Source: Candidatus Paceibacter sp.
GTDB lineage: Bacteria; Patescibacteriota; Patescibacteriia; S139-126
DNA length: 64,000 nt
Assembly (NCBI GenBank): GCA_020724865.1
Contig: DYGA01000001.1
Coordinates: forward strand, 835 to 64,834
Reading direction: 5' to 3'
The notes beneath the pieces were generated by a model. It saw only the letters and a program-made list of their open reading frames with translations, had not been told where the DNA came from and did no database searches. Positions 13,864 through 36,937 of this stretch are shown here, piece after piece (within the stretch, counting starts at the first letter, position 1; every line of letters starts with the position of its first letter). The position numbers were made by a program, and so were the translations under genes.

Positions 13864-15321
13864 TTAGGGATTTTGAGTTAAACAATTATTATATATAGCC
13901 CACGCATCTCGCCCATATTCTTCTGCTGCTGGTCCACTACCATTGTATTTACGAAAACAATCTTGTGTCACATCTGCCGGACAAATTTCTTTCCACAAAT
14001 TTGTCACGGCATCAAGGTTTATATCTAATGTAAATAAACTTTTCGGATCATATAATTTACTGCCAATTTGCCTGCAGTGCGGAGCGCCGTTACAAGCAGG
14101 CCCATCAGGAAAAACTGTTATTTGTCCCAAACCAATACCGTGAGAAAAACGCCAATCTAAACCAAGATCAGCTCTATTCGGATTAACAACATCATCATCA
14201 TTTACAGCCGCACCAGTAATACTACAAACAGCGTTTGATTTTTTACCACTATACATTAAACATCCACTATTTACAAAATCACGACGTGATTTTATTCCCT
14301 CTTTTCGGACATCTTCATCATGACCTAAAGCATCTGCTCTACCTGAAGACTCTTTGGTAAAGAGCGTAGCTAAAACACAATAATGTATATTATTTGCCTG
14401 TGAAACTTGCTTCATAGAATTTTTCATATCTTCACTAAATGGTTTGACTAACCTAGTACCGGTAATTTTTTCATAAGCATCACTGCCAATTAAAGTTATA
14501 CCTTCAACTTCATCAATTTTTAAAGGATTAAAACCTACTAAATTTGGATTAATAAAATAAAGCACAGTATAAGAACTAACTACCAGCAAAAGACCAATTA
14601 TAGAATCACGAATGGTTTCTTTGGCTTTATTTATACCTTCCGCGCTACCAGCCGCTGCCAACCACTGCATCCCTCCAAATGCCATATAAGCCACAACAAC
14701 TACTCCAATTGCGCCAATTAACCAATTAAATAATAAGGCAATATATTTAGATAATAGTTCACCATTTACTTCTATACCTTGACCTTTATTGATAGTAAAA
14801 ACCTTTCCACCAAATTCAACTGAGCCGGGGATAGTGACTTGGGGAGTAAATTCTAATCTTTCAATTTTTTCTGGAGGCCTATATTCAGTACTCAAAAATG
14901 AACTTAAAACCTGACCTATGCCTTGACTACAATTTATTTCCTCACAAGTTTGACCATCAATATATTTTGTAATCGGAACATTGCACTGCTCTTGCGTAAT
15001 ATTACTAGTACAAGTTTCAATTTTTTCGTTATATGTATTTATTTTTATACAACAACTTTTTTTATCAAGCGGACAATTTGTATTTTCTTCACAAAAATTA
15101 CTATATATTGGGTAACCTTCAACTGGTTGATAGTTTGGTTCATGAACACCACAATAAAAATCACAGGCAACTTTATCAATATTTTGATTACCTAAACAAT
15201 TACTATTTGGTAAACACTTGCAACACCCTGCTTGTGCACTCACTGGCAAAAAAAATAACCCAAATAAAAAAATAGAACCAATCAAAAATTTTATCCTATA
15301 ATTTCTCATTGATAATTTCAC
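13864..15321 (-). CDS. Secreted Cys-rich protein with a conserved two-helix hydrophobic hairpin (VirB2/TrbC-like) and a C-terminal lytic-transglycosylase-like domain (VirB1-like)
   Basis: Signal peptide; ~20 Cys in the N-domain; hairpin GAIGVVVVAYMAFGGMQWLAAAGSAEGINKAKETIRDSIIGLLLVVSSYTVL nearly identical in pattern to the 17360-18802 protein; C-terminal LATLFTKESSG...SHGIGLGQIT matches the SLT family-1 ES...G[LI]GLMQ catalytic motifs. Confidence 0.5.
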   Translation of the reverse strand: MKLSMRNYRIKFLIGSIFLFGLFFLPVSAQAGCCKCLPNSNCLGNQNIDKVACDFYCGVHEPNYQPVEGYPIYSNFCEENTNCPLDKKSCCIKINTYNEKIETCTSNITQEQCNVPITKYIDGQTCEEINCSQGIGQVLSSFLSTEYRPPEKIERLEFTPQVTIPGSVEFGGKVFTINKGQGIEVNGELLSKYIALLFNWLIGAIGVVVVAYMAFGGMQWLAAAGSAEGINKAKETIRDSIIGLLLVVSSYTVLYFINPNLVGFNPLKIDEVEGITLIGSDAYEKITGTRLVKPFSEDMKNSMKQVSQANNIHYCVLATLFTKESSGRADALGHDEDVRKEGIKSRRDFVNSGCLMYSGKKSNAVCSITGAAVNDDDVVNPNRADLGLDWRFSHGIGLGQITVFPDGPACNGAPHCRQIGSKLYDPKSLFTLDINLDAVTNLWKEICPADVTQDCFRKYNGSGPAAEEYGRDAWAIYNNCLTQNP

Positions 15322-16012
15322 TTAATTCTTCGCTGGTAAATAAACCACGATAAGGCGTATTGTCAATAAAAAAATAAGGAACAGCATCAATCTCTAAATC
15401 AGTAGCCTCAATATTATTCTCATATACTTTATTTTCCATCTGACCTTCATTTAAACATGCGTTGAATTCATTTATTGATAAATTTAAAGCGGCGGCGATT
15501 GATTCTAAAAATTTTAAATCAATATTTGCTTGATTCATAAAAACCTCATGTTGATATTCCCAAAATTTTCCTTGAGCATTGGCACAATAAACTGCTTGTT
15601 GTGCCAGCATACCTTCATTGGTAGAAGCCGTGCCTTTCCAAACTAAACGTAATATTGTCTCTGGATAAATTGCCAACAACTTATAAATTTCATCTTGCTG
15701 TATTTTACACAAAGGACTAAATAAGTCACAATAATAAAAAATTGTTACTTTAGCGTTAGCGCTACCTCTTCTCACATCATCTGGCAATACCTTTGGATAT
15801 AAAATCTTAGCATCACGAATTAAAGGGTCATTATAACTAATTTTTGGTCCTGCTGCATATCTAACGCTGGCCGGGGTTATATTGGTATTGTTTAAATATT
15901 GAACAAAAATAAATAAAAAAATCGATAGAAAAAATAACCCAACAGCAGCAGAAAAAAATAACCAAATTGAAACTTTTGATTTAGATTTATTTTGTTTTGA
16001 TTTTTTAGGCAT
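15296..16012 (-). CDS. DsbA-like thioredoxin-fold thiol:disulfide oxidoreductase with a non-canonical active site
   Basis: N-terminal TM anchor; KVTIFYYCDLFSPLCK aligns to the DsbA/BdbD VTVVEFGDYKCPxCK region with SPLC in place of CPxC and an extra Cys 7 residues upstream; later VYCANAQGKFWEYQHEVF and cis-Pro-loop-like AVPYFFIDN fit the DsbA fold. Confidence 0.55.
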   Translation of the reverse strand: MPKKSKQNKSKSKVSIWLFFSAAVGLFFLSIFLFIFVQYLNNTNITPASVRYAAGPKISYNDPLIRDAKILYPKVLPDDVRRGSANAKVTIFYYCDLFSPLCKIQQDEIYKLLAIYPETILRLVWKGTASTNEGMLAQQAVYCANAQGKFWEYQHEVFMNQANIDLKFLESIAAALNLSINEFNACLNEGQMENKVYENNIEATDLEIDAVPYFFIDNTPYRGLFTSEELSEIINEKL

Positions 16013-16085
16013 AAATATTAAATTTTAAATTATTAATTATAAATTATAAATGAATTTTAAATGATAAATTTATAATTTATAATTT
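16013..16085 (-). promoter_or_regulatory. AT-rich promoter region with tandem TATAAT-like boxes (TTATAATTTATAATTTT); the same motif style recurs upstream of many genes here
   Basis: aaatgataaatttataatttataattttcaaag directly upstream of the 15296-16012 start; similar boxes at 21995-22068, 24930-25037, 37860-37960, 50221-50280. Confidence 0.3.
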
Positions 16086-17354
16086 TCAAAGATTAATACT
16101 ATAAAGCCCACCTGTTGCTTTATCAACAAAGTATAAAACACTTTGATCTTGAGAAACCATTACTTCGCTGGCAGTATACTTAGTTAGATCGCCAACTGGC
16201 TTGGCAAGCAGTGTTTTGGAACCAGTAGTCAAATCTATACGGTAAAATAAATCTGGTATATCATCTGCTACTTCAGGCACATAAGCTGCTCCCTCCGGCA
16301 AATATTCAGGAACAGCACAATATGCATTGGTTCCGGCAATAGCACATTTATCCAACCAAGTTTGAATACCAAGAGAATTGTTATTCATACCAATATTATC
16401 CCCATCGGCTCTAGTAACCCATAACATTGGTCTGGAACCTGACGCTTCAGAGTATATTTGATAAATTACATTCTTTCCATCATCTAACCATTCACCCTTA
16501 AAACCCCTGCCTTGAACGGTTAAAGATTTAAAATTTTCTCCATTTTGACCAATTAAATAAATTTCTGATTGATTTAAACCTCTGCCTTCTCTATAAAAAG
16601 CAATAACTTGATTATTCGGCGACCAAGCCACCTGGACATCTTCTCCAGCATTATTCATAGGCTCAACAAACTTAATTTCACTACCGTCCGGAGTTGCTAC
16701 ACCTAACCAATCATCATTGGCTAAATCTGACTGCCATTTAAAACCAATATTTGTTCCGGTGCGAGAAAAATCAAACTCTGTCATCTGCCTAGGTAGGGTC
16801 ACCTGCTTATCTTGAGTAAAATCATAATAAATATTGGTACTATCCGGATATTCCAAAATTGCCTTTTCACCATCAGGTGACCAGGTGACTGTATCAACAT
16901 TGAAAAATCTTTTATCAGATAAAGGTTGTACCTCACCACTGGCAGTCAAACGATAAAATTTATTGTCAGCTGAGTCGTAATAATTGAAACTTTTACCGTC
17001 ACCAATTGGTTTAACTCCAGTAATATTTTTAGCAATCACTGTTTTAGCAGTCGTAAGCCCACCAATTGCTCGATCACTAACCGTAGGTTGACCGCCTATT
17101 TGACCTGGAGTAGTTGGTATTTGTCCCCCAGATTGGCCGATATTGCCAGAAATTGGCAGTCCGGTAATTGGATCTATCACCACTCCTGTGGGTGGACCTT
17201 CACCAATATCAGGTAACTGACCAGTTTGACCAGGAGTGGTATCTGGTGGAGTAATAGGTACTTCTGTTCGCCAAAATAAAAACCACAGCAGATATCCCAG
17301 TCCTACAACAATTACTGTAAAAATAATAATTTGTATAATTTTTTTTCTGTCCAT
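16086..17354 (-). CDS. Membrane-anchored TolB-like beta-propeller (PD40 repeats) protein with Pro/Gly-rich linker
   Basis: N-terminal TM; PD40-type repeats WSPDGEKAILEY and AWSPNNQVIAFY. Confidence 0.5.
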   Translation of the reverse strand: MDRKKIIQIIIFTVIVVGLGYLLWFLFWRTEVPITPPDTTPGQTGQLPDIGEGPPTGVVIDPITGLPISGNIGQSGGQIPTTPGQIGGQPTVSDRAIGGLTTAKTVIAKNITGVKPIGDGKSFNYYDSADNKFYRLTASGEVQPLSDKRFFNVDTVTWSPDGEKAILEYPDSTNIYYDFTQDKQVTLPRQMTEFDFSRTGTNIGFKWQSDLANDDWLGVATPDGSEIKFVEPMNNAGEDVQVAWSPNNQVIAFYREGRGLNQSEIYLIGQNGENFKSLTVQGRGFKGEWLDDGKNVIYQIYSEASGSRPMLWVTRADGDNIGMNNNSLGIQTWLDKCAIAGTNAYCAVPEYLPEGAAYVPEVADDIPDLFYRIDLTTGSKTLLAKPVGDLTKYTASEVMVSQDQSVLYFVDKATGGLYSINL

Positions 17355-17359
17355 AATTA

Positions 17360-18802
17360 TTAAAATTCAGGCGTATAATAATTTAACATAAGTACCCAAC
17401 ATCTTTCACCAGTATCACAACTACCTCCAACTGGGGGATATTCAGCACAAGGTTTCTCTATCCAATAAAAGGGTGGAAAATCGTGATTAGGTAATGGGTT
17501 AGGTCTTATATAACCATTTAAAGAAATTGTTGTGGGCCTCTCAACAGAGCATTGTGATTGTTTACTTAATACACATATAGAATCAGTGCCTTTACCAGCT
17601 CTTGGTGAATCAGAACAAGTAACTTCTATTTGATTTGATGTTAGTGGATTTGGTACGCCGGTCGCCCAATATTTTAAAACTCTTGGACTTCCATTTTCCA
17701 AACAAATTTCCTGATTATTGTATTTTCCTTCGCTACAAGGTATACGATTAAAAGTATAATTATTCAATGATAATAAATTGGCGTCTTCTATATCAGTTAA
17801 TACACATTCATCTGGTTGCATAAAATCTAAAGATACAATAGGTATAAAAGCTACCCCAGCTTTTAATATATCATTACGAAAACTGCAAACTTTATTATCT
17901 ATTTCTGAAACATTAGATGCTTTTTGAATAGTCTGTAAATATTGATCAAATAACTCACAACTTGATGTATCTTGAGATTTACAACGTTCATTAAATCTAC
18001 TCAAATCAACACACTCAAAACCAGCATTAGATGAACCTGATGTGTTTAATTTAGCTAAACAATATGTCCCATCACCACATTTTAAACCCTGACAAGTATT
18101 ATTGGGATTAATTTCCGAATAATAAGTAAAATTACACCAAGTATCTTCTTTGTTTACTTTGGTTTTACTTTCATCGCCAACTTTTATCCATTTTTGCGAA
18201 CTTTCTGTATCCACACAATAGTTAAGCAAAAAATTGGGTTTAATTCTTTCTACTCTGATATAATCAATATTTACTAAACGTGAATTTATAGTGCCAAGTA
18301 ATACATAAGAACCAACTGCCAGTAGCAAACCTATAAAAGCACCTTGAATAGTATCTTTGGCTTTACCAATTTTTTCAGCGTTTCCCGCAGCCATCATCCA
18401 TTCAAACCCGCCCCATCCTATATAAGCCACAGTAATAATACCAATAACATAAATAAAATAGGTATAAATAACTTTTAAATAATCAGGAAATTGTGAAACT
18501 TTGGTTAAAGTTCCGCCACTTTGAATATCAGGAATCGGGACCGAAAGGTTTATCTCATCTGGCTTTAAATAACATTTGCCATACTGAATATTTTCACTAC
18601 CTTTACATTCTCTTTGAAAATCAGCATCGCCAACCACAAAAAAATAATTTTCCGTTTCACTGCCCGCTTGTCCCAAACATTGTTCCTGTGTCCAGCATTG
18701 GGCTGGTATGTTTTGAGCTAAAACAACTTCAACTAAACCAAAACTAAATAAGGTTAAAAATGTTATAACAAATATTATTTTATATATATTCCACTTATTC
18801 AT
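17360..18802 (-). CDS. Secreted Cys-rich protein with VirB2/TrbC-like hydrophobic hairpin (paralog of the N-terminal part of 13864-15321)
   Basis: Signal peptide; >25 Cys; hairpin YFIYVIGIITVAYIGWGGFEWMMAAGNAEKIGKAKDTIQGAFIGLLLAVGSYVLL shares the motif VAY.xxGGxxWxxAAGxAExIxKAKxTI...IGLLLxVxSY with the 485-aa protein. Confidence 0.45.
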   Translation of the reverse strand: MNKWNIYKIIFVITFLTLFSFGLVEVVLAQNIPAQCWTQEQCLGQAGSETENYFFVVGDADFQRECKGSENIQYGKCYLKPDEINLSVPIPDIQSGGTLTKVSQFPDYLKVIYTYFIYVIGIITVAYIGWGGFEWMMAAGNAEKIGKAKDTIQGAFIGLLLAVGSYVLLGTINSRLVNIDYIRVERIKPNFLLNYCVDTESSQKWIKVGDESKTKVNKEDTWCNFTYYSEINPNNTCQGLKCGDGTYCLAKLNTSGSSNAGFECVDLSRFNERCKSQDTSSCELFDQYLQTIQKASNVSEIDNKVCSFRNDILKAGVAFIPIVSLDFMQPDECVLTDIEDANLLSLNNYTFNRIPCSEGKYNNQEICLENGSPRVLKYWATGVPNPLTSNQIEVTCSDSPRAGKGTDSICVLSKQSQCSVERPTTISLNGYIRPNPLPNHDFPPFYWIEKPCAEYPPVGGSCDTGERCWVLMLNYYTPEF

Positions 18803-22750: not shown

Positions 22751-22822
22751 TTGGGATTTAGGATTTAGTATTTAGGATTGTAAACTTAACCATTCATCCT
22801 AACTCCTAGCTCCTAACTAATA
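22751..22822. repeat. Inverted TTAGGAT/TTAGGAG heptad arrays (gggatttaggatttagtatttaggatt ... atcctaactcctagctcctaact)
   Basis: Direct reading; same family as 19977-20062. Confidence 0.5.
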
Positions 22823-25037: not shown

Positions 25038-26360
25038 TTAATCTGCCAATTCCAATCTGTCGTCTTTTTCTAAAATTATTTTCCATTTAAACTCTCCAGT
25101 TTTTAAATCACCATAAGCTATCGGTAAATATTGTTTATCGCCAGCCCGCTTTAACTCGTTGACCAATTTTATCGCCAGTACCGCTGATTCACCATCGTCA
25201 AGTTTTAAAATATCTTTTAAAATATGTTGTAAGAAATATGACAGATAAACTGGTTCCAGCAAATTATTGGCAAAATGATCGGCAATTTTTTTGGAAAACT
25301 TTTTGTTTAAATGCTGTATAAATATTTCTTTAATTTTTACATCTTGTTCAAAAATTTCATCTAACTTTCCTTTTTTGGCAAAAACAAATAAATACAAATA
25401 TATATTATCTTTATCTTTTGAATTTATTGCTTGATGAAAACTTTCAAATAATTCCTTATTCGACTTTTTTAATAAATTATCCGCTTGGTTTATAATTTTA
25501 TCTATAAACTTTTGATAATTTATATATTTTTGTAGAATTTTTTCTTTGTTATCAATATCTGGTTCTGCTGTTGGGGTAATGTTTTCTGTAGAAAAATAAA
25601 CTGCTTTTTCTTTATATACTTTTGGAATGGGGATTAATCTAAATTCTTCAAAAGGTATATTTTTTTCTAAATAAACATCAGGAAAAAATTTTAAATTTCT
25701 AAATATCTTAATTAATGTCTCAACATCTTTCTTTTCTTGAGGAGAAAGATTTTTTACTTCTTTTACTTCAGTTAAAAAGCTGGCCAAAGTAAAATCATTG
25801 AACTCTTTTAAACCATATAGGGAAATAAATAATTTTAACCAATTTGCCACTGTTCCAGGAACTTTTTTATTTTCCAATTCTAAATTTGTTTTGGTAAAAA
25901 TAGTTTTATTGTTATATAAATAATTTAAAAGTTCCTCATTGAAATTTACATCATACAAAATTACATAAAGAAATTTTTCATTTATCTCTATCAACAAATC
26001 TACGCTCTGATTTAATAATTTTCTAATTTCTCCAGTAAAAAAATTTTTCAAATCTTCTTTATAAATTTTATTTTTATCAAGATCACTTACCAACAACAAG
26101 CTGAAAACATCACTGACTAAATCTTGTTTTACTTTGACAGCGATACTTTCTGCCAAATTAAACTTTTTCATAATATATTCTGGTATGTCACTTATATCCA
26201 GTTCTCCAATGGCCACCAAAATAACAACAAACTTTAAATCAATCTGATATTTCAACTCCAAAGATTGCAACGCTTGAACCGCATCTTCACCACCTAAAGC
26301 ATCCTGAACATCGCTAGGTAGTTGATAAAATTTAATTATACAATTTTCGATATAACTCAT
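25038..26360 (-). CDS. Hypothetical cytoplasmic protein within the T4SS-like locus
   Basis: ORF track; Lys/Glu-rich; no recognizable motif. Confidence 0.4.
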   Translation of the reverse strand: MSYIENCIIKFYQLPSDVQDALGGEDAVQALQSLELKYQIDLKFVVILVAIGELDISDIPEYIMKKFNLAESIAVKVKQDLVSDVFSLLLVSDLDKNKIYKEDLKNFFTGEIRKLLNQSVDLLIEINEKFLYVILYDVNFNEELLNYLYNNKTIFTKTNLELENKKVPGTVANWLKLFISLYGLKEFNDFTLASFLTEVKEVKNLSPQEKKDVETLIKIFRNLKFFPDVYLEKNIPFEEFRLIPIPKVYKEKAVYFSTENITPTAEPDIDNKEKILQKYINYQKFIDKIINQADNLLKKSNKELFESFHQAINSKDKDNIYLYLFVFAKKGKLDEIFEQDVKIKEIFIQHLNKKFSKKIADHFANNLLEPVYLSYFLQHILKDILKLDDGESAVLAIKLVNELKRAGDKQYLPIAYGDLKTGEFKWKIILEKDDRLELAD

Positions 26361-26426: not shown

Positions 26427-28895
26427 TTAAAAATGTTCTTCGGGACTTTCACTGCTATTTGGCGGAATTTTTGCTTCTTTGCCGTAACTTATTAATAAAT
26501 CATGAATAAGTGGAATAGTTTTATTTTGGGTATCAATACTCCTTTTAATATCATTTAATACGGAAACTAGGCTTTGATTGGTTGCTTCATCTGACAGTAT
26601 TTGATTAACTGTTTTTGTTTTATCTGAAGAAATTTTTTCTTTAACCAGCTCTTCAATTTTATCTTCTTGTTTATTTTCTAATACAGATTTGACTAACTGC
26701 TCTACTTCTGCCTCATCAGTTAGACCATAACCATGAATCTTCTCACGTATAGTTGCTTCTTTAAAATCACTTTCACTATATCCGCGACTACTAGAATTGA
26801 CTAGGTTTAAATTTTTTAAATTTTTTGAATCTTTTAAACGCTCTTTGGCTTTTTCTAAATTTTTTATTTCATTTTCCTTTCCGCCTTTGGTTTTTAACTC
26901 TTTAATCTGACCATCCAATAATTGAACTAAAGCTTTCGCAACATCTTTTAAATCATTTTTATTTTGAATACTTATACTTTTAACTTTACTGGGGTCGCCA
27001 GTTTTACCTTTCAATAAATCCAATTTTTCAAAATTTTTATTATCAAAATCAACTGCTAAAACATTTGCTTTTTCACTGGCAAAATCATCTACTTCTAAAT
27101 TTCCAGGTCCCTTTTTCAAATCCAATTCTTCTTTTGCAACATCACGATAATGATTTAGATGGTTTCCGGTTCTTGACATTCTATCTAGATCTGCTGGTAA
27201 AATTGCTCGACCAAACACAGGATCGCCTGGTTTATTCAAATCACCAGCTAAAATTTTTCCGTTTTCATCAATACCGGCAATTTTAATGTCATTAAAACCA
27301 GAATAATGGGCTCCCGAATTGTATAATCCCCTGCGATATCTATTTCTTGACAATGCATCTTCATGCTTAGTTCCTCTTAAATCAATACCGCTGTTACCAA
27401 GATTATAAATTTCTTCATCGCTTAATCTGGCAAAATCATCAGCGTCCATTTTGGCTAAATATTCTCTAGCTAAAGTTTTATCCTTTATTAAAGAGGGTGC
27501 TTTTCTTCTCATCACATCTCTACGTACAGAAGGTATTTTACTGTTGACAAAACGCTGTAATATACGAGGGTCATTAATCGAGCCATAAATATCGTTGACT
27601 TTTTTTCTATCAGCCGCTCTTTTATTTTCTGCCATAGCTAGAGCTTTTGTTGCTAAAGTATTTAGACCAATAATCTTTGATCCTCCAATAGCACCCAAAA
27701 CATTTCTTACTCCTTCACTGCGGCTCAAATAGCCACCCAATTGTCCAGCTGCTTTACCTGGCGCTTCTTTCGTTTTTTTCACAGCCCAACCAACTGCGGC
27801 TGCGCCCGTACCAAGCATAGCTGCCCGCGTTCCCCATTTTTGTACTTTTTGAGCAAAATTACCTACTGCTCCACCAGATTGAGCGGCAATTTTTTGTGAA
27901 ATTGCTAGCCCTCCCAATAGTAATGCCAATACTACTATATAATTTAAAATTACACTTTGATCTACATTGGACGGAATAATTTGAGACATTTGACTTTTTA
28001 ACTCCCCGGTTCCTTGAGAAGAAAATTTATTTGCTATATCGCCTTGCTGCATAGTGAGTAAAGCTAACCACAAAAAGAAAGCTATTACGGGACCAGAAAT
28101 AAGATGTTGGAAAAACATTTGCCACCATTGCGACCAATAATTTGGTTTAAAGGCATAAGCCAAATATGCCAATGGCGAAATAATTACCAATACCCAAAGC
28201 ATAGTAATACGCCACATCAAAACAGCAATCATCACCAATATCACCATATCAGCTACCAATATCATCACAACTGCCAAAGCTGCTGCTACGACTAAACCTT
28301 CTTGAAAACCTGAAACGTCAGACGCCCATACTCCCTGTGAAAGCATTTCATAGATACCTAAACCTTGTGCTAAATTTCCACCTGCTACGTCTTTAAAACC
28401 ATTAACAAAGGTCAACATAATTACTTGAAAAAAATCTATCAAAAACCCGGCGATGAGTTTAGAAAAATTTACCAAAATTGCCATGATTAACAACTTGGTA
28501 AGTGTTTTTTGATAATGATATGAGCTTATTTTAAGAACAGTAGAAAAAGCAATTATCAACAGAACCACAATAAAGAACATATTAGCTATATCCCGAGCCA
28601 AACCCCAACCAGTAGCAACCATCGGCATATCAATAAAATTATTGAATTTAGCTAATTCAATCATTATGCCCACAAAAAATACAAATAAAACTCCTAAAAA
28701 TCTTACTACTAATAAAAATATTGCTGTTAACAAATCACTAGCAAATTTTAAAGGGTCAGAAAAACCCTCCCAAATAGCACTAAAGACACTTGCTGAAACA
28801 TAATTGGTAATAAAAAATACACCCACTACGACAAATAGAAAAGTAAAAAGTAAATTGGTTTTGTTTTGTATCAATTGCCTAATTTTTTTTGGCAT
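26427..28895 (-). CDS. VirB6/TrbL-like polytopic membrane protein with long hydrophilic C-terminal tail
   Basis: ~350-aa N-terminal region with 6 or more TM helices rich in Trp/Gly/Ala, as in TrbL/VirB6; then a ~450-aa charged, coiled-coil-prone extension as in Gram-positive VirB6 homologs. Confidence 0.5.
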   Translation of the reverse strand: MPKKIRQLIQNKTNLLFTFLFVVVGVFFITNYVSASVFSAIWEGFSDPLKFASDLLTAIFLLVVRFLGVLFVFFVGIMIELAKFNNFIDMPMVATGWGLARDIANMFFIVVLLIIAFSTVLKISSYHYQKTLTKLLIMAILVNFSKLIAGFLIDFFQVIMLTFVNGFKDVAGGNLAQGLGIYEMLSQGVWASDVSGFQEGLVVAAALAVVMILVADMVILVMIAVLMWRITMLWVLVIISPLAYLAYAFKPNYWSQWWQMFFQHLISGPVIAFFLWLALLTMQQGDIANKFSSQGTGELKSQMSQIIPSNVDQSVILNYIVVLALLLGGLAISQKIAAQSGGAVGNFAQKVQKWGTRAAMLGTGAAAVGWAVKKTKEAPGKAAGQLGGYLSRSEGVRNVLGAIGGSKIIGLNTLATKALAMAENKRAADRKKVNDIYGSINDPRILQRFVNSKIPSVRRDVMRRKAPSLIKDKTLAREYLAKMDADDFARLSDEEIYNLGNSGIDLRGTKHEDALSRNRYRRGLYNSGAHYSGFNDIKIAGIDENGKILAGDLNKPGDPVFGRAILPADLDRMSRTGNHLNHYRDVAKEELDLKKGPGNLEVDDFASEKANVLAVDFDNKNFEKLDLLKGKTGDPSKVKSISIQNKNDLKDVAKALVQLLDGQIKELKTKGGKENEIKNLEKAKERLKDSKNLKNLNLVNSSSRGYSESDFKEATIREKIHGYGLTDEAEVEQLVKSVLENKQEDKIEELVKEKISSDKTKTVNQILSDEATNQSLVSVLNDIKRSIDTQNKTIPLIHDLLISYGKEAKIPPNSSESPEEHF

Positions 28896-28949: not shown

Positions 28950-28990
28950 AATACAAAACAGATAAAAATTTTAATTTTTATCTGTTTTTT
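28950..28990. terminator. Bidirectional intrinsic terminator (stem AACAGATAAAAATT/AATTTTTATCTGTT) downstream of the giant gene
   Basis: aaacagataaaaattttaatttttatctgttttttta. Confidence 0.55.
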
Positions 28991-29012: not shown

Positions 29013-32000
29013 TTAAGGACAACTTGGTCCAACACAAACGGCGTTATTGACAACACTTTGAGCATATCTTTGCGGATTTGCTCCAAAGCCCCAATTATCC
29101 ATAACTTGAATAGTAATATTATAATTACCCGGCACACCAGCATAAGAGTGATACAAAACATGAGGATCACCAGCAGAAGGCCTTTCGTTAAAGTACCCCT
29201 GAACAATAGTATTAGCTGAACCATCACCCCAGTTAATATTGTAACTACGTAAAGGCAATTGATCATTGGCGATATTGGTAGTAAAACTCAATTTAACCGT
29301 TCCGCCATCAGGTAAACTTACAGTTGAAGAAGCATCATTAATTAAAATATTTCCAATCTGAGGTAAAATACTTGCTCCAATATTATTCCAACCACCACCG
29401 GCAACTTCCACATAACGCCAAGACCCGTTTTCATACTGCCAACGATATTCACCTAAAGATTTAATAAACAACTGACTTAAACTACTTCTAGCTGAAACCG
29501 TATCAGTATTGGGCATCGGACTTGGAGTTTGCCAAGAACCAACACAAACTCCAAAATTGATTCCGTCACCTGAGTAACAACTCTTGGCAGTTTCATCATC
29601 AATACACAAATTACCATTACGAGGGCCACCAACACAAACTGAACCAACACAATTTCCGTTATAACATGCGTAAGGGGTGCCAGCCCTAATATTGGGTCCT
29701 GGATTCAAAGATCCATCGTTCATAGTCAAAGTGTTCGCCGCTTCCACATAAATTGGCTGATTGCCTGGTTCAGTTGGTCGCGAATCCCAAGTAGTAGGAT
29801 CATTTTCATTTTGCATTTGATTGGATCCGTCTTGGAAATAACGAGACAATCCACTCTGATAAACTGCACCAAAGGGAAGACTATCTTTGATATAGTTATA
29901 ATCAAGAGGCGTCACATTGTAACCGCTAAACTGATCAACTCTGGTCCAATAAGGATAAGCTGTGATGTCACCATTTGGTTCAATTTGAGCAACTTTTTCC
30001 AAAACCATACAAGGTTCACGCAAACTATACTCTAATGAATAACCAGCTGCTTGACTACCGCTACTACCACTATAATCATCCATAAATATATAATAAGCTC
30101 TTGGATTTCCTTGTGCTGTAAAAATAACTGCAAAAACTAATAGATCGCTGGAATCGCCACAAGTACCTTCTACCGGCCTATCTTCCCCATAATAAGCAGA
30201 ACTACAATAATTAAACCAAGCATATTCATCATTTGCCATGGCATTAGACAATTCAGTTCCACCATAAGACCCAAAAGCAGCTATCTGATTTTTACTCAAC
30301 CTATGCGCCCTTGTTAAAACAGCCCAATCAGGATACTCACCTCTAGTAGATTTTTTTCTTAAAAATATTTTTTCTATATCATGTTCAAAATATTTATTTT
30401 CAGGGGTACCACTAATATCACGGATTATATACCTCGTACCATCTCCTCTAGAACAACCACCTATTGTAAATCCAACTCCACTTTTAAGACCAGACCAATC
30501 ATCACAACTATTATTTTCAAAAATAAAAGGCTCTTGTCCTACATATGATGGATAAATAGTAAATGCTCCCCTTATTACATTTAATTTATAATTATCATGT
30601 GTGTAGAGCCCATAATTTGGATTAGAACTTTCATTACCCGCTGAAACCGCACAATAATACAACGGTACTTTTTCCTCAAAAACCAATGGTCGTTCATTGA
30701 TTTGGGCTACTGAGCCTTTGATAATATCAATTGGCCACCAGTTCACACAGTAAGCCGGATTTCTGGGATCTGCTTCAGCACAAAAACCTGGCCAACCAAC
30801 ATATGATTTAGTGCCTTTGACATAGTTACACTCAGGCGAAGAACTTTCCGGATATAAACGACAACGTTGGCTAACCAATGTTTCTGGATTATTTTTCACT
30901 TGCAAAGCTGGTAGTATAGTCAAACCATCAATAAACATTGTACCTTCTTTGATATTCAAAAGTTCAGCTCTGATGGTTATATTGTTGGCAGTATTGTTAA
31001 ACTTGATAGAAAACTGTTGCCAACCGCCAACACTATAATCCTGTTTAGTGCCAAATTGGCCTACTGTATTACTGCCTTGTAAAATTCTTATATTAGCTCC
31101 AGCGTTATTATTGTCGGTTGGAATATTTTCCCACCTAATAAACCCAGATAAAATATATTCTGAAGGTGACAACGACAATGGTTGATTTAAGAAAACATTA
31201 CTATTGTCGGCACTGGCGTTGTTAGGACTGATAGAAAGTTTTGCGGCTTTTAAACCAGAAATAGCTTGGCTATCAGGGGTCACCCGACAAGTGCTACCAG
31301 CACTACAATTTGAACTATCTGTATTCCAATAAGGAAATGGAGATTGCAGTGGCTGATTGGTAGTAATAGTGTCTTCAAAACTTGGGTTGTATAAAACGTT
31401 GGCTTCATTGCCAATTTGGATCATTTTACTATATGGTAAATACCCTGGAGTGGTACCATTGCCAGTAGCAAAACCCGACCAACTCATTCCCGCTTTGGTA
31501 TAACCACTCATCATTCGCAAATCTTCGACAGTATAAGGAGCTGTATATCCAGTAGCACCGCTGATTTGTTGGCCGACTATTTCAGTATCTGGCAGTTGAG
31601 GAAAACTATTACATTCGCCACTATCATTTAACCCATTACAAATACCTATATCAAAACATTTATCATCACGATTACCTTCACTATCATAAGCTTGTATACG
31701 CGTTTTACAATACAACCACTCTTCACAGACCCGATCTTTTTGTACTTGTAAAATTATATTGACACTATTTTCCGCAGGATTTGAACTACTAATCGGCACA
31801 CTGCCGTCAGGCGTGGCGGTGGTATAAGCACTAGCCGTATAAGCTTGAGGTGCGCCGTCAACTTTGTTAAACAGTCTGCAACCACGCTCGCGATCAACTA
31901 AACCATTGCAGGCAGCGGTATTGACTGACTGCTCTAAGTAAAAATATGAACTCTTGGTCACATCAGATTCGCCTTCTGGATCAATGTATTGACTACAACC

Positions 32001-35000
32001 CATTGCTTCTGGAGAACAAAGCCCTACCCAACCGTCATAATTTGGATCTGTGCTTGGTATTGGTTGCGAGGGATAAGATTGTAAATCTGGACAAAACTCT
32101 TCAGTGCCAGTTTTGTACCAATTAGCCTGAGTACGACCGGGTAATAATTTATATTCACAAGTGCGATTAGCCGGATCTATCAAAAAGGCTGTGGCTCCGG
32201 TGCGTTCATTGGTGTATTGTTCACAGTAAAGCCCGCCAACACCGCACATTGTCGTATTATAATTTTCTGGATTATCAATAATATATTTATCATTGAAAGC
32301 AACTACTGCTCTATTGTCAGATTGACGATTTAAAATAGCTTCTCCCGCCAAAGTACAACCAGCAAACTGACCAGCACAATATTTTTCTTGATCATCAACC
32401 AAGTATACTATAGTGTCAGCTGGCACCGTAACATCATCAAATCCTTGCGGATCAGAAAAGGCGTTATTGCCGGTGTTGTAAGTTTGACTATAAGGAGAAT
32501 TGGAATTTTTGGTATCAATCAAAGCTTTACAGCCCACCTTGGAATCACTACAGAGAGATGTAAAACTAAGCAAGTTTATTTGATTGCCCTTAACATCACG
32601 ATAAGCCTGACAACCCAACTGAGCGCCCACAAAAGGTTGATTACAAATTGCCGGAGTTTCCCAAGAATCATCTATTAAATAATAACTATCTGTTACTTCT
32701 CTAACTATAACATTATCTAGGTAAGCGTTGACTGCATTGGTTTGTAAAAATTCATAAGCAGCGACTTCCCGATCAAAATTAACTGGCCCGAGTCGATAAT
32801 ACTGCCATTCATCAGTCAAACTAACTGTGCCAAAGCTACGCTGCGAACCAGCTATGGGTTGTAAATCTGTAAATTGAATTATATTTTGAGCTTTAGCTTG
32901 TTTGATAAATGCTAATTGCTTGGAGTCTTTTTGAGTAATTTGACTAACTTGGTAAGCTTGAATTTCAAAAGATAAATTAGCCGCCGATCCTGCGCTTCTG
33001 GCCCAAAAAGAAATAGTATAATTTTTACCTTGTTTGATAATTTCTCTGACAGATTTATGTGCCCGAACACCTGACAACTGTAAAGAGTGTCCGCCTACAT
33101 ACACTGATTCACTAGAATTAAATCCATTAGTCCAACCCTCGCTAGTGCCAGATTCAAAATCATCGTTGACTATAATAGTAACCACATTACCTTGATTACC
33201 TCGATATTCTTTACAACCTACAACTTCGGCACGACAAGACCGACTAAAAGATTCAATGCCATAAATAACACTAGAATCCACTGTGCGACGGAAAGGATGA
33301 CAATCATCAGTAGCATAAGTTACAGTCATAATATCCCGTGACCAACTACTACCTTCCGCATCAATAAAGGTGCGACAATTTAGCGGATCATTAGTAGGAT
33401 CACAACTATTACCAGTGGGCGCTCCACCACCAGCTGACTGTAAACGCCAAGTTTTCAATTGATAACCAGCTGTATCACTACCTTCCCAAGTATAAAAAAC
33501 TTTGGCTGCTGGATCGTTGGGCAATATACACTCTCTAATAAAAGTGAAATATCTTATTCCTTCGCCGCCTTGAGCAACCTCATCTAAATTGGTAAATTGT
33601 TCACAACCAACATCGCTTAAACGACAGCTAGTTGCAGAAGCAGGAATTATATTTTCAATACTAGGAGTCAGTAAAGGATTTGCTCTTTGTTCAAAATAAG
33701 TTGGCACCTCTAAATATTGATCATAACCTATACACGAAGCACTGCAATAATCATTACTGCCTAAAACCGCGGGCACGGGTGGATCGCCATTGATTGGAGT
33801 ATATAAACTACAACCAACTTCAGCAGCCGTACAACTTTGAGCATAATTATCACATTCGGAGTCACGGTTAGGATCGTTGACATCAGCTGGACAATTCAAA
33901 TAACTTGGTGCTTTCTTCATATTTTTTTCCTGAATCAACCCCCATTCACCATAAGAATCAAGTATCCCAGCATCAGCATAAATACTCTGATTATTTTGGA
34001 TATATTGGAATATTGATTGGGTCGTGGCTTCATAACCATCAGGCGCAGTTATATTTGTAAGTTCTATGAATTTATTACAACCCTCGTCTTTCGAACTGCA
34101 AGTCTTTACTTGATTATTGAAATATCGCGCATAACTTATGTCACCTAAATCACTGCGATTGTAAACATCACCAAAGGTAATTTGATTGTCACTACCAAAA
34201 CCGTTGGTAGTTTGATTCCAAATATCATCTGCCCAGTAGCCACTTGGAGTTTTATACATACTGTACCATCGGCAACCAACTTGTGACGAATCGCAAGTTT
34301 GCATAGTAGCAGTCAAATAAGAAATTTTATCACTGGTTGATTTTTTTACATATGTTTCACATGTAGAAAACTGAGGGAGACAAGCTTGTCCTTGAAAATT
34401 CCAAGTATTTTTTTCCTTGGTACAATAGCCATATTTTTGACAGGTGCCATTGGGATTTTCAACAATACAAGTCTGCTCGTCTGCACAATAATTTGCTCTT
34501 TGTAATGATTCTTCACTAACTCTTATGGTTCCACCAAAACCATCTGCCACTTCAGTTTCAACGTTTACACGTTGTGATATTTGCGGACCCGGACCTTCTA
34601 TACGACAATCATATTCTGGTAATTTCAAAACCCAATTTGGATCTATAAGATGATAAAATGGAGAAGTTGAAGAACTAAAGGCCTGAAAGTTATCAGCTGG
34701 TGTACCCATAACTTGAGCCAGAGTAAATGTTTCGTTGTTGGTATTTATATCTTTGATATAAAGGGCGGCCAATTCCCAAGTAACCGGAATTATTCTGTAT
34801 TTCCGCATAAAGACTAAACTACGATAAGGGTAACCATTGGTATAAGATGGTTCACTACCATCACTCAAAAAACCAAATGGTTTATTGGGATCCAGATAAC
34901 CTTGCTCAATCGCTTGTCTGACGGTCAAACGTTGGTCAATCGCTGTCGCTAAATTATTATCAATAATACAATTATCAAATAAACGAGCTTGATTTTCTGG

Positions 35001-36089
35001 TGGACAGGACGAGAGTTTGCCCAAAACATCTACACTTCCGCCGCCACGAAAAGATGGAATTATAAATTCTGCATAACTAGCATCTGCGCCTCTGGTTGCA
35101 TAAGAACTGGCAAAATCTCTTGGACCGCCACCGGTAGCGCCACCTTTGCCAGCCAAAACACCTTTTTGTAATCTTTGCAAAAATTTAGACGCTAAAGTAT
35201 TGGTAAATGTCCGCAAAGCATCAGCGGCGATATCACCAGTCAAAGTGGTCCAACCAGAATCAACTGATTTTTCTGCAGTTGCTCCTAGCCAATTTTTTAT
35301 ATCCAAAGCTGGGGTCTTAATAGATTCAAATCCTAAATCACCAATCGGAGATTTTAAACTCTTAACATCTGATTCAATTGACCTAATCAAAGTGGCCATT
35401 TGCTCATCTTGAGCTCTTTTGGTGGAAATATTGGAATATAAAATAAACTGAGCCCCTAAATCATTTGATCGGGGATTAAAATATTGAGCTAACAAGTGAA
35501 AATTTTCTGCATCAAGTAATCGTAAATCAGGTTTTTGTCCATTGATGGATACGTTCAATAATTTAGTTTTTAAAATATCATTGAAAGTGCAGGTTGCTCT
35601 TTGCGGTTCAAAAGCTTGTTTGGTTCTTAAAATCAACTGTAATTTTATATTAGCATTATAAGGTTCACACAAACTGACACCAAATGTGCCTTTAGCTAAC
35701 TCATCCAACCCCTTACCAATCGCCTCATCGCCAATTCCTCTAATATAAGCTCCAATACCTTCATCCCAATACAAAGGTTTTTGTCCTTTATCACCAGTAG
35801 CCAGCCAAGTAGCTGTATCATAAGCTACTCTTTGTAAGAAATAGTCTAGAGCATTTTTGTAAACAATTTTAGCTGCCCTTTGTACAAAAAACCAAATTTT
35901 TTCGGCAATTGAAACTTCAATCTGAGGTTTGCTAACCAATTCAACTGTAGGAGTAGGAACACCAATAGCTTTAATATTTTTTATCGGCAATATATAGCCA
36001 CCTAAAATAAAAAATAAAAACAAAACCAAAAACAAAGATCTGATACTTGTCTTTTTTTGATCTTTGCCTGGTTTAATATTTTTTGGCAT
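29013..36089 (-). CDS. Giant (2358 aa) secreted/membrane-anchored Cys-rich surface protein with C-terminal PKD domain and lectin/CBM-like beta-sandwich regions; candidate adhesin of the T4SS-like system
   Basis: Uninterrupted ORF; N-terminal TM/signal LFLVLFLFFILGGYILPI; >100 Cys and many Trp/Tyr/Asn/Gly; C-terminal INWGDGSANTIV...LYHSYAGVPGNYNITIQVMDNWG matches the PKD motif (WDFGDGS...H.Y...G.Y.VTL.V.D..G); mid-region GGHSLQLSG...YTISFWARSAGSAANLSFEIQAY is CBM-like. Confidence 0.6.
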   Translation of the reverse strand: MPKNIKPGKDQKKTSIRSLFLVLFLFFILGGYILPIKNIKAIGVPTPTVELVSKPQIEVSIAEKIWFFVQRAAKIVYKNALDYFLQRVAYDTATWLATGDKGQKPLYWDEGIGAYIRGIGDEAIGKGLDELAKGTFGVSLCEPYNANIKLQLILRTKQAFEPQRATCTFNDILKTKLLNVSINGQKPDLRLLDAENFHLLAQYFNPRSNDLGAQFILYSNISTKRAQDEQMATLIRSIESDVKSLKSPIGDLGFESIKTPALDIKNWLGATAEKSVDSGWTTLTGDIAADALRTFTNTLASKFLQRLQKGVLAGKGGATGGGPRDFASSYATRGADASYAEFIIPSFRGGGSVDVLGKLSSCPPENQARLFDNCIIDNNLATAIDQRLTVRQAIEQGYLDPNKPFGFLSDGSEPSYTNGYPYRSLVFMRKYRIIPVTWELAALYIKDINTNNETFTLAQVMGTPADNFQAFSSSTSPFYHLIDPNWVLKLPEYDCRIEGPGPQISQRVNVETEVADGFGGTIRVSEESLQRANYCADEQTCIVENPNGTCQKYGYCTKEKNTWNFQGQACLPQFSTCETYVKKSTSDKISYLTATMQTCDSSQVGCRWYSMYKTPSGYWADDIWNQTTNGFGSDNQITFGDVYNRSDLGDISYARYFNNQVKTCSSKDEGCNKFIELTNITAPDGYEATTQSIFQYIQNNQSIYADAGILDSYGEWGLIQEKNMKKAPSYLNCPADVNDPNRDSECDNYAQSCTAAEVGCSLYTPINGDPPVPAVLGSNDYCSASCIGYDQYLEVPTYFEQRANPLLTPSIENIIPASATSCRLSDVGCEQFTNLDEVAQGGEGIRYFTFIRECILPNDPAAKVFYTWEGSDTAGYQLKTWRLQSAGGGAPTGNSCDPTNDPLNCRTFIDAEGSSWSRDIMTVTYATDDCHPFRRTVDSSVIYGIESFSRSCRAEVVGCKEYRGNQGNVVTIIVNDDFESGTSEGWTNGFNSSESVYVGGHSLQLSGVRAHKSVREIIKQGKNYTISFWARSAGSAANLSFEIQAYQVSQITQKDSKQLAFIKQAKAQNIIQFTDLQPIAGSQRSFGTVSLTDEWQYYRLGPVNFDREVAAYEFLQTNAVNAYLDNVIVREVTDSYYLIDDSWETPAICNQPFVGAQLGCQAYRDVKGNQINLLSFTSLCSDSKVGCKALIDTKNSNSPYSQTYNTGNNAFSDPQGFDDVTVPADTIVYLVDDQEKYCAGQFAGCTLAGEAILNRQSDNRAVVAFNDKYIIDNPENYNTTMCGVGGLYCEQYTNERTGATAFLIDPANRTCEYKLLPGRTQANWYKTGTEEFCPDLQSYPSQPIPSTDPNYDGWVGLCSPEAMGCSQYIDPEGESDVTKSSYFYLEQSVNTAACNGLVDRERGCRLFNKVDGAPQAYTASAYTTATPDGSVPISSSNPAENSVNIILQVQKDRVCEEWLYCKTRIQAYDSEGNRDDKCFDIGICNGLNDSGECNSFPQLPDTEIVGQQISGATGYTAPYTVEDLRMMSGYTKAGMSWSGFATGNGTTPGYLPYSKMIQIGNEANVLYNPSFEDTITTNQPLQSPFPYWNTDSSNCSAGSTCRVTPDSQAISGLKAAKLSISPNNASADNSNVFLNQPLSLSPSEYILSGFIRWENIPTDNNNAGANIRILQGSNTVGQFGTKQDYSVGGWQQFSIKFNNTANNITIRAELLNIKEGTMFIDGLTILPALQVKNNPETLVSQRCRLYPESSSPECNYVKGTKSYVGWPGFCAEADPRNPAYCVNWWPIDIIKGSVAQINERPLVFEEKVPLYYCAVSAGNESSNPNYGLYTHDNYKLNVIRGAFTIYPSYVGQEPFIFENNSCDDWSGLKSGVGFTIGGCSRGDGTRYIIRDISGTPENKYFEHDIEKIFLRKKSTRGEYPDWAVLTRAHRLSKNQIAAFGSYGGTELSNAMANDEYAWFNYCSSAYYGEDRPVEGTCGDSSDLLVFAVIFTAQGNPRAYYIFMDDYSGSSGSQAAGYSLEYSLREPCMVLEKVAQIEPNGDITAYPYWTRVDQFSGYNVTPLDYNYIKDSLPFGAVYQSGLSRYFQDGSNQMQNENDPTTWDSRPTEPGNQPIYVEAANTLTMNDGSLNPGPNIRAGTPYACYNGNCVGSVCVGGPRNGNLCIDDETAKSCYSGDGINFGVCVGSWQTPSPMPNTDTVSARSSLSQLFIKSLGEYRWQYENGSWRYVEVAGGGWNNIGASILPQIGNILINDASSTVSLPDGGTVKLSFTTNIANDQLPLRSYNINWGDGSANTIVQGYFNERPSAGDPHVLYHSYAGVPGNYNITIQVMDNWGFGANPQRYAQSVVNNAVCVGPSCP

Positions 36090-36106: not shown

Positions 36107-36871
36107 TTAATTACCTTCTGCCCTGATCTGTTCATATATATCCATCAACTCTTGATCGCTGTAAGCATTAACTTGTTCGGCAGGCACACCATTGGCAATC
36201 AATAATTCTCGCAATTGCGCTGGGGAAGAAATAACCGGTTCAGCCGTGGTAGTATTATTATTTTGACCAGAAATTGTTCCTACTTGATTTTCAGTTTCCA
36301 GATATGCTTGTAAAAACATCTGTTCTAATGAGGCATCATCAATTTCATCCAAAGTTGCCTGGTCTAACCCGCTATTTATAAGTAATTGTCTAATTTCTGC
36401 GGGAGTAATTTTATAAGGATCTATCAACGCATCAGTAGTGACTTTGGCTTGACTAGATGTAGTTACTGTCTGACTATCTACTAAACATTTTTGACCAGCT
36501 GGACAAAGTGGGTCATTACCAGTTTCTATTTCCAATTTATCAAAATAACTATCAGAATCAGAATCTTCCAAATAGGGAGAAGTTCCATAGACATACAGTT
36601 CATCATAATCTGATAAACCATCGTTATCCGTATCTTTTGTTCTCAGTTCGGTTAAACTTTTAATTTGATCTTCAACCGAATTTTGTACCTGTGATTGGGC
36701 AAGAAGTTTACTCTTATCAATTTGAAATGGGCTTTTAATAGTATTAAGTATTCGCCACGAGCCAAAAATTAACGCAATTAAACCAATTATAAGAAAAAAT
36801 CTTCCTTGATTCTTAGGAACAGTAAAAATTTTTTTTAATTTTTCAAATAATATACCTTTTACCCTACCCAC
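36107..36871 (-). CDS. Membrane-anchored protein with thrombospondin type-3-like calcium-binding repeats
   Basis: N-terminal TM; DTDNDGLSDYDELYVYGTSPYLEDSDSDSYFD matches the DxDxDGxxDxxE Ca-binding repeat. Confidence 0.5.
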   Translation of the reverse strand: MGRVKGILFEKLKKIFTVPKNQGRFFLIIGLIALIFGSWRILNTIKSPFQIDKSKLLAQSQVQNSVEDQIKSLTELRTKDTDNDGLSDYDELYVYGTSPYLEDSDSDSYFDKLEIETGNDPLCPAGQKCLVDSQTVTTSSQAKVTTDALIDPYKITPAEIRQLLINSGLDQATLDEIDDASLEQMFLQAYLETENQVGTISGQNNNTTTAEPVISSPAQLRELLIANGVPAEQVNAYSDQELMDIYEQIRAEGN

Positions 36872-36937
36872 ATTATTATAAAATATATTTTCTTAACTTT
36901 ATTATAACAGATTTTTTAAAAATAGTCAAAGTAAAAA

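Follow-up and report, generated by a model that had tools for sequence, protein, structure and literature searches.

The longest gene in a 64,000-nt stretch of DNA from Candidatus Paceibacter sp. (contig DYGA01000001.1, hereafter the window) encodes a protein of 2358 residues that is a member of a large family, without a name, of giant secreted proteins rich in disulfides from ultra-small Patescibacteria. In this giant, a scaffold under strong constraint carries one variable domain, and the linkage of its gene to that of a VirB6-like protein is almost invariant across distant relatives. We put at about even the chance that it is a Sec-exported, disulfide-stabilised extracellular protein and an accessory, conserved part of the T4SS-like (type IV secretion system-like) apparatus of ABY1-type Patescibacteria. 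The family would then be the strongest candidate to date for the arm by which this machine contacts a host.

The gene is an uninterrupted minus-strand open reading frame (ORF) running from an ATG at 36089 to a stop at 29013. As an initial annotation of the locus had recognised, it is the largest ORF of the window, almost three times as long as the next one (823 aa). The same annotation had counted more than 100 cysteines, which is too many; the Cys-rich character still holds, since the 68 cysteines make up 2.9% of residues, roughly fourfold the share in the window's other ORFs (0.73% when the pilin-domain proteins are included, 0.46% when they are excluded). Many of them stand in close pairs: 11 are C-x6-C pairs with the recurring context ..C...vGC..[YF], and further pairs have the spacings C-x5-C and C-x9-10-C. 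Compared with the other ORFs, Tyr, Gly, Pro and Trp are enriched 1.4-1.6-fold and Asn 1.2-fold, in agreement with the abundance of Trp, Tyr, Asn and Gly noticed at the outset, and Lys, Leu, Ile, Met and His are scarce. Such a residue make-up is ordinary for a beta-rich extracellular protein. The gene has no tandem repeats except a 27-nt A-rich run, and no LPXTG motif was found in the protein, whose C-terminus reads ...AVCVGPSCP.

A first protein search returned 204 relatives of 2300-3800 aa each, annotated as hypothetical or named for a carbohydrate-binding module (CBM) or dockerin; those with a named source are all Patescibacteria (Buchanan-, Komeili- and Parcubacteria). When 1.84 billion representative proteins were searched with a profile of the N-terminal domain (aa 36-500), 2443 clusters were retrieved at E <= 1e-3, including 1141 at E <= 1e-30. 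In the best 150 matches the domain lies at the N-terminus, and most of these proteins have 2300-3400 aa; about 25 are shorter and are probably fragments. Furthermore, at least 544 contigs in GTDB species genomes encode a relative of the giant. The named ones belong to Kerfeld-, Kuenen-, Falkow- and Uhrbacteria or to the 'Parcubacteria/Patescibacteria group', lineages that we take to be the GTDB class ABY1. NCBI 'Falkowbacteria' contigs have been equated with an ABY1 genus (PMC11809585). The family is widespread yet uncharacterised.

Similarity to the relatives is colinear over aa 1-1830 in BLAST and resumes at the C-terminus. In a full-length alignment, a consensus runs along most of the giant and cysteines are among the best-conserved columns: across 46 distant homologues, Cys columns are 85% identical versus 25% for all other residues, and 54 of the 68 cysteines are conserved at 80% or more. 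Domains follow a unique, colinear order in all homologues, and the C-terminal PKD-like domain is present as a single copy in 116 of 120 of them. Some relatives additionally carry dockerin or PA14 modules. The best-conserved parts are not the CBM; they are the N-terminal domain, which is of an unrecognised kind, and the Cys-rich spacers. The family defines at least two regions without known relatives (the N-terminal domain and the variable beta-rich domain described below) and a recurrent C-x6-C hairpin motif.

The N-terminal hydrophobic segment (aa ~13-40) had been described as a membrane anchor or signal. It is indeed present; its loss by signal-peptidase cleavage at an A-x-A-like site is more probable than its retention as a permanent anchor, because the N-termini of the family look like classical Sec signal peptides, with a basic n-region, a core of about 20 residues and a P-x-P-A-x-A pattern. 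The A-x-A motif occurs in 112 of the 197 full-length members that have a hydrophobic N-segment. The only domain detected by a whole-protein Pfam scan is CBM_4_9 (PF02018) at aa 972-1048, a match above the gathering threshold that is marginal and partial (E 6.6e-6; 27.0 bits, the cutoff being 25.9; positions 3-90 of the 136 in the profile). This segment also gives weak sequence matches to xylanase CBM22 structures, and CBM_4_9 is precomputed for most homologues. Of the CBM- or lectin-like beta-sandwiches proposed initially, this marginal one is retained. A second CBM at aa 1556-1742 was not accepted because hhalign of the profile of the first CBM against this stretch aligned the last strand only (probability 55%).

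The C-terminal PKD domain proposed at the outset needs a more cautious name. The motif string NWGDGS...HSY...MDNWG is there, and an AlphaFold2 model of aa 1740-2358 built from 28 family sequences (mean predicted local distance difference test score, pLDDT, 73.7; predicted template-modelling score 0.76) contains an Ig-like domain at ~2209-2334, besides a large beta-rich domain at ~1809-2079 and a small Cys knot. However, PKD (PF00801 / PF18911) had no match in the whole-protein Pfam scan, and PKD_4 reached only 14.6 bits on the C-terminal 219 aa, below its gathering threshold of 27 (E 0.034). Since PKD_4 is sub-threshold while the model is Ig-like, we call this domain PKD-like. In comparison with the PDB, matches of the C-terminal profile are confined to de novo designed Ig domains (E ~1e-4), and the beta-rich domain at ~1809-2079 has no convincing match to any solved structure. 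The model of the N-terminal domain has a mean pLDDT of 59, with a compact subdomain at aa ~355-495 (pLDDT ~90) that holds the near-invariant motifs GYPYRSL..RKYRIIPV.WELAA and DPNWVLK. Searches of this domain against solved structures gave no PDB match with the sequence alone, one chance-level match with the profile and nothing with Foldseek on the model.

Homology throughout to an enzyme family, which the initial annotation had set against an adhesin, was not found: Pfam, NCBIfam and PHROGs reveal no catalytic domain (glycoside hydrolase, lyase, esterase or peptidase) in the 2358 aa, and the NCBIfam and PHROGs scans of the giant gave no match of any kind. Relaxed per-segment Pfam scans of five stretches that jointly make up ~70% of the protein showed no catalytic domain either. 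The Pfam and NCBIfam scans found no SLH, no other domain known from S-layers or cell-wall anchoring and none of the adhesin domains of PrgB; dockerin, which occurs in some relatives, was not found in this giant. A repeat-type giant adhesin (RTX, Bap, FhaB) was also considered and rejected, given the lack of tandem repeats, a Pfam scan of the giant without haemagglutinin, FhaB, RTX or other such domains and the unique colinear domain order. The membrane-anchored, repeat-type Gram-positive adhesin first envisaged is therefore not supported, as the giant has no tandem repeats and no LPXTG motif, and its signal peptide is probably cleaved.

Compared with seven close relatives, to which it is 62-84% identical overall, the giant shows 80-95% identity in almost every 100-residue segment, with milder dips in the two jelly-roll segments. 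Identity drops to 19-57% at aa ~1800-2000, where indels are among the differences. For most of the gene, Nei-Gojobori omega is 0.03-0.15; at codons 1800-2100 it climbs from ~0.05 to 0.13-0.65, all values being rough because dS is saturated. Fast divergence between close relatives is confined to the beta-rich domain at aa ~1809-2079. Therefore, the giant is not a rapidly diversifying adhesin as a whole: the rapid diversification (dN/dS) that had been put forward as a check on the adhesin idea is absent from most of the gene, and this possibility was rejected. Variability driven by a diversity-generating retroelement was rejected too, as the window holds no second copy of the variable-region DNA (longest chance match 29 nt) and no reverse transcriptase among the ORFs scanned.

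Gene order was compared in 11 contexts with annotated flanks, namely the window and ten distant relatives (L004-L009 and L090-L093), and was counted in the 64 GTDB loci where a giant ORF could be recognised. All 11 contexts have rsmA, a protein of ~225-280 aa, the giant, a polytopic protein of 590-1290 aa and a protein of ~280-480 aa; the polytopic protein is homologous to the 822-aa neighbour of the giant in every one of them. Among the GTDB loci, 55 of 56 have a homologue of the small protein immediately ahead of the giant and 48 of 51 have rsmA upstream; downstream, single-sequence phmmer detects a VirB6-like membrane domain in 36 of 44. Since this order is kept in all 11 contexts and in most GTDB loci, the constant unit is a four-gene cassette around the giant and the VirB6-like protein, and its attachment to VirB4 varies. 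PrgI, TraC-like and VirB4 genes follow the cassette in five contexts (the window, L006, L008, L009 and L091), which share the order 254-aa gene, giant, VirB6-like, 440-aa, 391-aa, PrgI, TraC-like and VirB4. Unrelated housekeeping genes follow it in L004, L005, L007, L090, L092 and L093. On the other side, leuS is found further upstream in 10 of the 11 contexts and a divergent LysM-M23 peptidase gene in nine, including L004-L007 and L090-L093.

In the window, the cassette opens a minus-strand run that continues into PrgI/VirB3-like, TraC-like, VirB4-like, pilin-domain and DsbA-like genes (Table 1), so that the initial placement of the giant in a T4SS-like gene string was correct. Only 17 nt separate the stop of the 254-aa gene from the giant ATG, and the promoter-like site ahead of the 254-aa gene is the probable start of the transcription unit. 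The terminator announced between the giant and the VirB6-like gene corresponds to a real AT-rich hairpin. It is terminator- or attenuator-like, went unreported by a GC-demanding consensus terminator scan, and is followed, ahead of the VirB6-like gene, by a TGgTATAAT extended -10-like box. The VirB6/TrbL assignment of the 822-aa protein rests on orthologues because direct Pfam detection failed: it is homologous (blastp 1e-51 to 1e-102) to proteins at the same position elsewhere, two of which, from two lineages, carry TrbL_3 (PF19590). The gene of a 391-aa soluble protein lies between the 440-aa gene and the PrgI/VirB3-like gene, two small membrane protein genes stand between VirB4 and the first T4SS_pilin-domain gene, and a PD40 protein gene is also located between the two T4SS_pilin-domain genes. 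The two T4SS_pilin domains reach 26.7 and 26.2 bits, the cutoff being 26.6. This pilin-domain and DsbA-like stretch (13864..18802, minus strand) makes up the cluster's other extracellular part that depends on disulfides. Among the window ORFs scanned, neither a relaxase nor a coupling protein (VirD4/T4CP) was found. Without these, the window has an MPF_FATA-like T4SS gene set, comprising VirB4, PrgI/VirB3, VirB2-like pilins and, indirectly, VirB6.

Table 1. Segments of the giant protein and features of its neighbourhood (positions in the window)
Feature	Position	Strand	Remarks
Promoter-like site	36901..36929	-	TTGACT-17-TATAAT, TG extension, 11/12 matches; ~30 nt upstream of 254-aa gene
254-aa bitopic membrane protein	36107..36871	-	TM (transmembrane) helix aa 23-45, TSP3-type Ca-binding repeat, one C-x6-C pair, two helical repeats
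Giant ORF	29013..36089	-	2358 aa, 68 Cys
Signal peptide, aa 1-~42	35964..36089	-	K/R-rich n-region, ~20-aa hydrophobic core, ...PIKNIKA/IG (predicted cut at the slash)
Family-defining N-terminal domain, aa 36-500	34590..35984	-	Long predicted helices at low confidence and compact subdomain
Cys-rich region 1, aa 495-965	33195..34607	-	Recurring C-x6-C hairpin motifs, consensus ..C...vGC..Y
CBM_4_9-type jelly-roll, aa 962-1148	32646..33206	-	Pfam match aa 972-1048
Cys-rich region 2, aa 1149-1500	31590..32645	-	More C-x6-C, C-x5-C and C-x9-10-C pairs
Second beta-sandwich-like segment, aa 1556-1742	30864..31424	-	Begins NPSFED, ends FIDGLTILP; CBM identity unconfirmed
Beta-rich domain, aa ~1809-2079	29853..30665	-	pLDDT ~80-95; contains hypervariable stretch aa ~1800-2000
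Small Cys knot, aa 2142-2182	29544..29666	-	Six Cys
C-terminal Ig-like, PKD-like domain, aa ~2209-2334	29088..29465	-	NWGDGS and MDNWG motifs
AT-rich hairpin	28955..28988	-	16-bp perfect inverted repeat, dG -15 kcal/mol, z -5.0, then UUUUG; directly after giant stop
822-aa VirB6/TrbL-like protein	26427..28895	-	Polytopic N-terminal domain aa ~11-340, then Cys-free hydrophilic tail
440-aa soluble protein	25038..26360	-	No TM segment, 1 Cys; fourth conserved cassette member
PrgI/VirB3-like	22817-23269	-	PrgI 31.1 bits vs cutoff 27
TraC-like	22069-22746	-	Assignment precomputed
VirB4-type ATPase	20068-21960	-	P-loop_TraG 106 bits
Cys-rich T4SS_pilin-domain protein	17360-18802	-	22 Cys
DsbA-like thioredoxin	15296-16012	-	Between the two T4SS_pilin-domain genes
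Cys-rich T4SS_pilin-domain protein	13864-15321	-	22 Cys

Several genes around the giant have features of their own. The C-x6-C pair of the 254-aa protein, CPAGQKC, has the same spacing as the recurrent motif of the giant, and a helical repeat of ~35 aa occurs in this protein in two copies, PAEIRQLLINSGL... and PAQLRELLIANGV...; like its TSP3 repeat, the dockerin repeats of some giants from other lineages are Ca-binding loops. The T4SS_pilin proteins, of ~480 aa, combine a VirB2-like membrane hairpin with large ectodomains, contain 4.6% Cys and far exceed ordinary VirB2 pilins in size; they flank the DsbA-like thioredoxin and the PD40 protein, a beta-propeller. A small gene for a 23S_rRNA_IVP (PF05635) four-helix bundle (~23500-23670, minus strand) lies between the 391-aa gene and PrgI, and one is found at the equal position in the distant relative L008 (23051-23401). 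Beside the T4SS-like cluster are recG (9002-11059, plus strand) and radA (12505-13860, minus strand). Together with the lack of a relaxase or coupling protein in the window, this is compatible, by analogy, with an apparatus for DNA uptake of the ComB type rather than for export. Divergent and upstream of leuS, a LysM-LysM-Peptidase_M23 gene (41123-42421, plus strand) could encode a cell-wall hydrolase of the system, analogous to VirB1; M23 and LysM domains were noted in Patescibacteria VirB1 candidates in a 2025 survey (PMC12102498). A tyrosine recombinase (Phage_integrase) gene (50431-51408, plus strand) and the gene of a 464-aa fn3-domain protein (52897-54291, minus strand) have no evident link to the giant.

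Other peculiarities concern the relatives. The product of leuS has 987-1194 aa in L004 (4048-7563), L005 (1670-5254), L007 (2011-5151), L091 (2665-5628), L092 (2820-5894) and L093 (2095-5109), against 809 in the window. In these long leucyl-tRNA synthetases, NUDIX and/or alpha/beta-hydrolase (Ser_hydrolase, Abhydrolase) domains are inserted between the synthetase halves. Where VirB4 is not adjacent, two to three paralogous genes of ~490 aa with only a PEP-utilizers domain (PF00391) lie a few kb downstream of the cassette (L005 25359-26783, L007 25528-29078, L090 26322-28535 and L092 27217-28451). Moreover, many GTDB species-representative records of metagenome-assembled genomes (TPA_asm, 'binchicken', SRP..._co) that are titled 'uncultured Gammaproteobacteria bacterium', for instance L010-L012, L016, L018 and L019, contain the cassette specific to Patescibacteria and match the window there with an identity of up to 93%; their names look like placeholders or errors. 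Single relatives labelled Pirellulales (L050), Zixiibacteriota (L072) and Alphaproteobacteria (L049) are probably mis-binned, as they are on short contigs or at contig edges.

The extracellular, disulfide-rich character proposed for the giant is supported by canonical signal peptides, the high Cys content, conserved Cys columns and the presence of DsbA-like and Cys-rich pilin genes in the cluster. The CBM_4_9 match, the dockerin and PA14 modules of relatives, the Ig- or PKD-like end and the absence of an enzyme domain suggest a binding rather than a catalytic architecture. The link to the T4SS is suggested by the VirB6-like protein that follows the giant, the T4SS core next to it in five contexts, the 17-nt gap to the upstream gene and the strong promoter-like site ahead of that gene. 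Finally, the low identity and raised omega at aa ~1800-2000, inside a confidently modelled beta-rich domain, point to a specificity element. The core of the original suggestion, a non-enzymatic extracellular giant of carbohydrate-binding type that is tied to the T4SS-like genes and could mediate host contact, is compatible with all these findings. It is strengthened by the lack of a catalytic domain, the near-invariant linkage to the VirB6-like gene and the hypervariable beta-rich domain near the C-terminus, adhesion itself being what we infer. Such a protein might work as follows. After transcription from the promoter upstream of the 254-aa gene, the giant would be exported by Sec and its signal peptide cut at the A-x-A-like site; about 34 potential disulfides could form with the help of the DsbA-like thioredoxin of the cluster. 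The helical N-terminal domain may keep the protein at the surface, docked on the VirB6/TrbL-like platform, on the 254-aa Ca-binding protein or on both. The Cys-stapled spacers and the CBM-type jelly-roll would make a long, rigid arm, from which the beta-rich domain, the PKD-like Ig domain and the CBM would contact a target surface, most plausibly host-cell glycans, and this contact would position a secretion or uptake channel.

Various observations weigh against this picture. The hairpin and promoter-like box separate the giant from the VirB6-like gene, so that the expression of the two may be uncoupled. The cassette is not within 10 kb of VirB4 in 6 of the 11 contexts, and guilt by association is weakened because the conserved leuS and rsmA neighbours show the gene order here to be generally frozen. 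The 822-aa VirB6-like protein itself has no Pfam match, the CBM match is marginal, the PKD match is sub-threshold and saturated dS blurs the omega values. Docking of the N-terminal domain to VirB6 is purely conjectural since its model is poor and searches of solved structures gave no match.

Other explanations were considered. The giant could be a general cell-surface adhesin or host-binding protein independent of the T4SS-like machine, its place beside VirB6 being a matter of frozen gene order. We consider this unlikely, and nevertheless a serious rival because gene order around the locus is generally frozen: conservation extends to the whole neighbourhood (LysM-M23 peptidase, leuS, sua5 and rsmA), which makes synteny weak evidence, and both the contexts in which VirB4 is not nearby and the hairpin and promoter-like box would suit it. 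However, the small upstream protein and the giant remain linked with the VirB6-like and ~450-aa proteins even where everything further downstream is different, the T4SS core genes come immediately next in 5 of the 11 contexts, and the Cys-rich character and the DsbA gene are common to the giant and the pilin-domain proteins of the cluster.

A structural envelope protein, either S-layer-like or a wall-spanning scaffold, whose variable patch serves escape from phages or predators, would account for the colinear conservation and strong purifying selection along most of the giant, the rigidly conserved Cys framework, the large conserved N-terminal domain without a binding-module signature and the absence of a second giant copy on any contig or locus examined, a count by contigs and loci and not by genomes. 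Its tight linkage to a VirB6-like channel protein, the CBM, PA14, dockerin and Ig-like modules typical of binding proteins and the lack of any SLH or known S-layer or wall-anchoring domain in the scans make this very improbable. Still further down we place a polysaccharide-processing or cellulosome-like protein, as automatic names ('carbohydrate binding domain-containing', 'dockerin type I repeat-containing') would have it. CBM_4_9 is found here and in most relatives, dockerin repeats occur in some, and the matches to xylanase CBM22 modules, although weak, go in the same direction; yet neither Pfam nor NCBIfam nor PHROGs detects the domain of a glycoside hydrolase, lyase, esterase or peptidase in the giant, which has no dockerin either, and conservation is concentrated in the N-terminal domain and the Cys-rich spacers instead of the CBM. 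Hence, this idea has hardly any chance of being right.

An accessory surface protein of a T4SS-like apparatus would have counterparts in known systems. In Gram-positive MPF_FATA systems, cell-cell contact is made by adhesins rather than pili (PMC12102498). Like the giant, PrgB (aggregation substance) and PrgC of pCF10, a system of this type, are large extracellular proteins encoded just upstream of VirB6 (PrgH), VirB3 (PrgI) and VirB4 (PrgJ) genes. Unlike them, the giant has no sequence or domain homology to these proteins, no LPXTG sortase signal and no repeats. Moreover, whereas PrgB and PrgC are plasmid-borne, it is chromosomal, vertically conserved across a bacterial class, disulfide-rich and tied to VirB6 even where VirB4 is elsewhere. 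The gene set of the window is that of the published Patescibacteria T4SS (Quinonero-Coronel et al. 2025, PMC12102498; Wang et al. 2023, PMC10633639), with VirB4, PrgI/VirB3, VirB6 and VirB2-like pilins, no relaxase or coupling protein seen and KsgA/RsmA nearby. RecG and radA beside T4SS genes, both present here, are reported as typical of the class ABY1 (PMC12102498). The phylum-wide survey of 2025 found no adhesin (PMC12102498), and neither study lists an adhesin or mentions the giant family (PMC12102498, PMC10633639), whereas here the VirB6-like gene has in the giant its most constant neighbour. In a cultivated, genetically tractable patescibacterium, the T4SS is essential for epibiotic growth (PMC10633639).

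Very large, surface-exposed T4SS polypeptides associated with VirB6 or the core and thought to touch the host have precedents in Anaplasma VirB6-4 and Helicobacter pylori CagY; the extended VirB6 paralogues of Rickettsiales include Anaplasma VirB6-4 proteins of more than 4000 aa (PMC7648143). These are repeat-rich extensions fused to a T4SS subunit, whereas the giant described here is a separate protein, predicted to be secreted by Sec, with non-repetitive, unique domains. Patescibacterium danicum, also of the class ABY1, encodes FhaB-domain giants that, like the present one, are predicted surface proteins proposed for host interaction; they exceed 4900 aa, have FhaB and DUF2341 domains and lack full-length homologues (PMC11809585). 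By contrast, the present family lacks these domains in Pfam and is broadly conserved.

Attachment to other microbes is the presumed way of life of most Patescibacteria. To our knowledge, how lineages outside Saccharibacteria recognise and hold their hosts is not established, and we know of no ABY1-class organism cultivated with its host. The giant family offers a concrete candidate for host contact, with a conserved disulfide scaffold and one fast-changing domain, encoded beside a VirB6-like gene. It also provides a testable handle: alleles of the variable domain can be compared with co-occurring hosts in metagenomes, and isolated domains can be used as probes on host cells. A bolder view, which we hold only tentatively and regard as rather unlikely, is that ABY1-type Patescibacteria possess an ancient module of four genes, passed on vertically, for the 254-aa Ca-binding membrane protein, the giant, the polytopic VirB6-like protein and the soluble ~450-aa protein. 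It would specify a VirB6-based surface organelle genetically separable from VirB4, in which the giant would be the extracellular stalk that bridges the ultra-small cell to a partner. If this were true, the hypervariable beta-rich domain, a fold without solved relative, would encode partner or host range.

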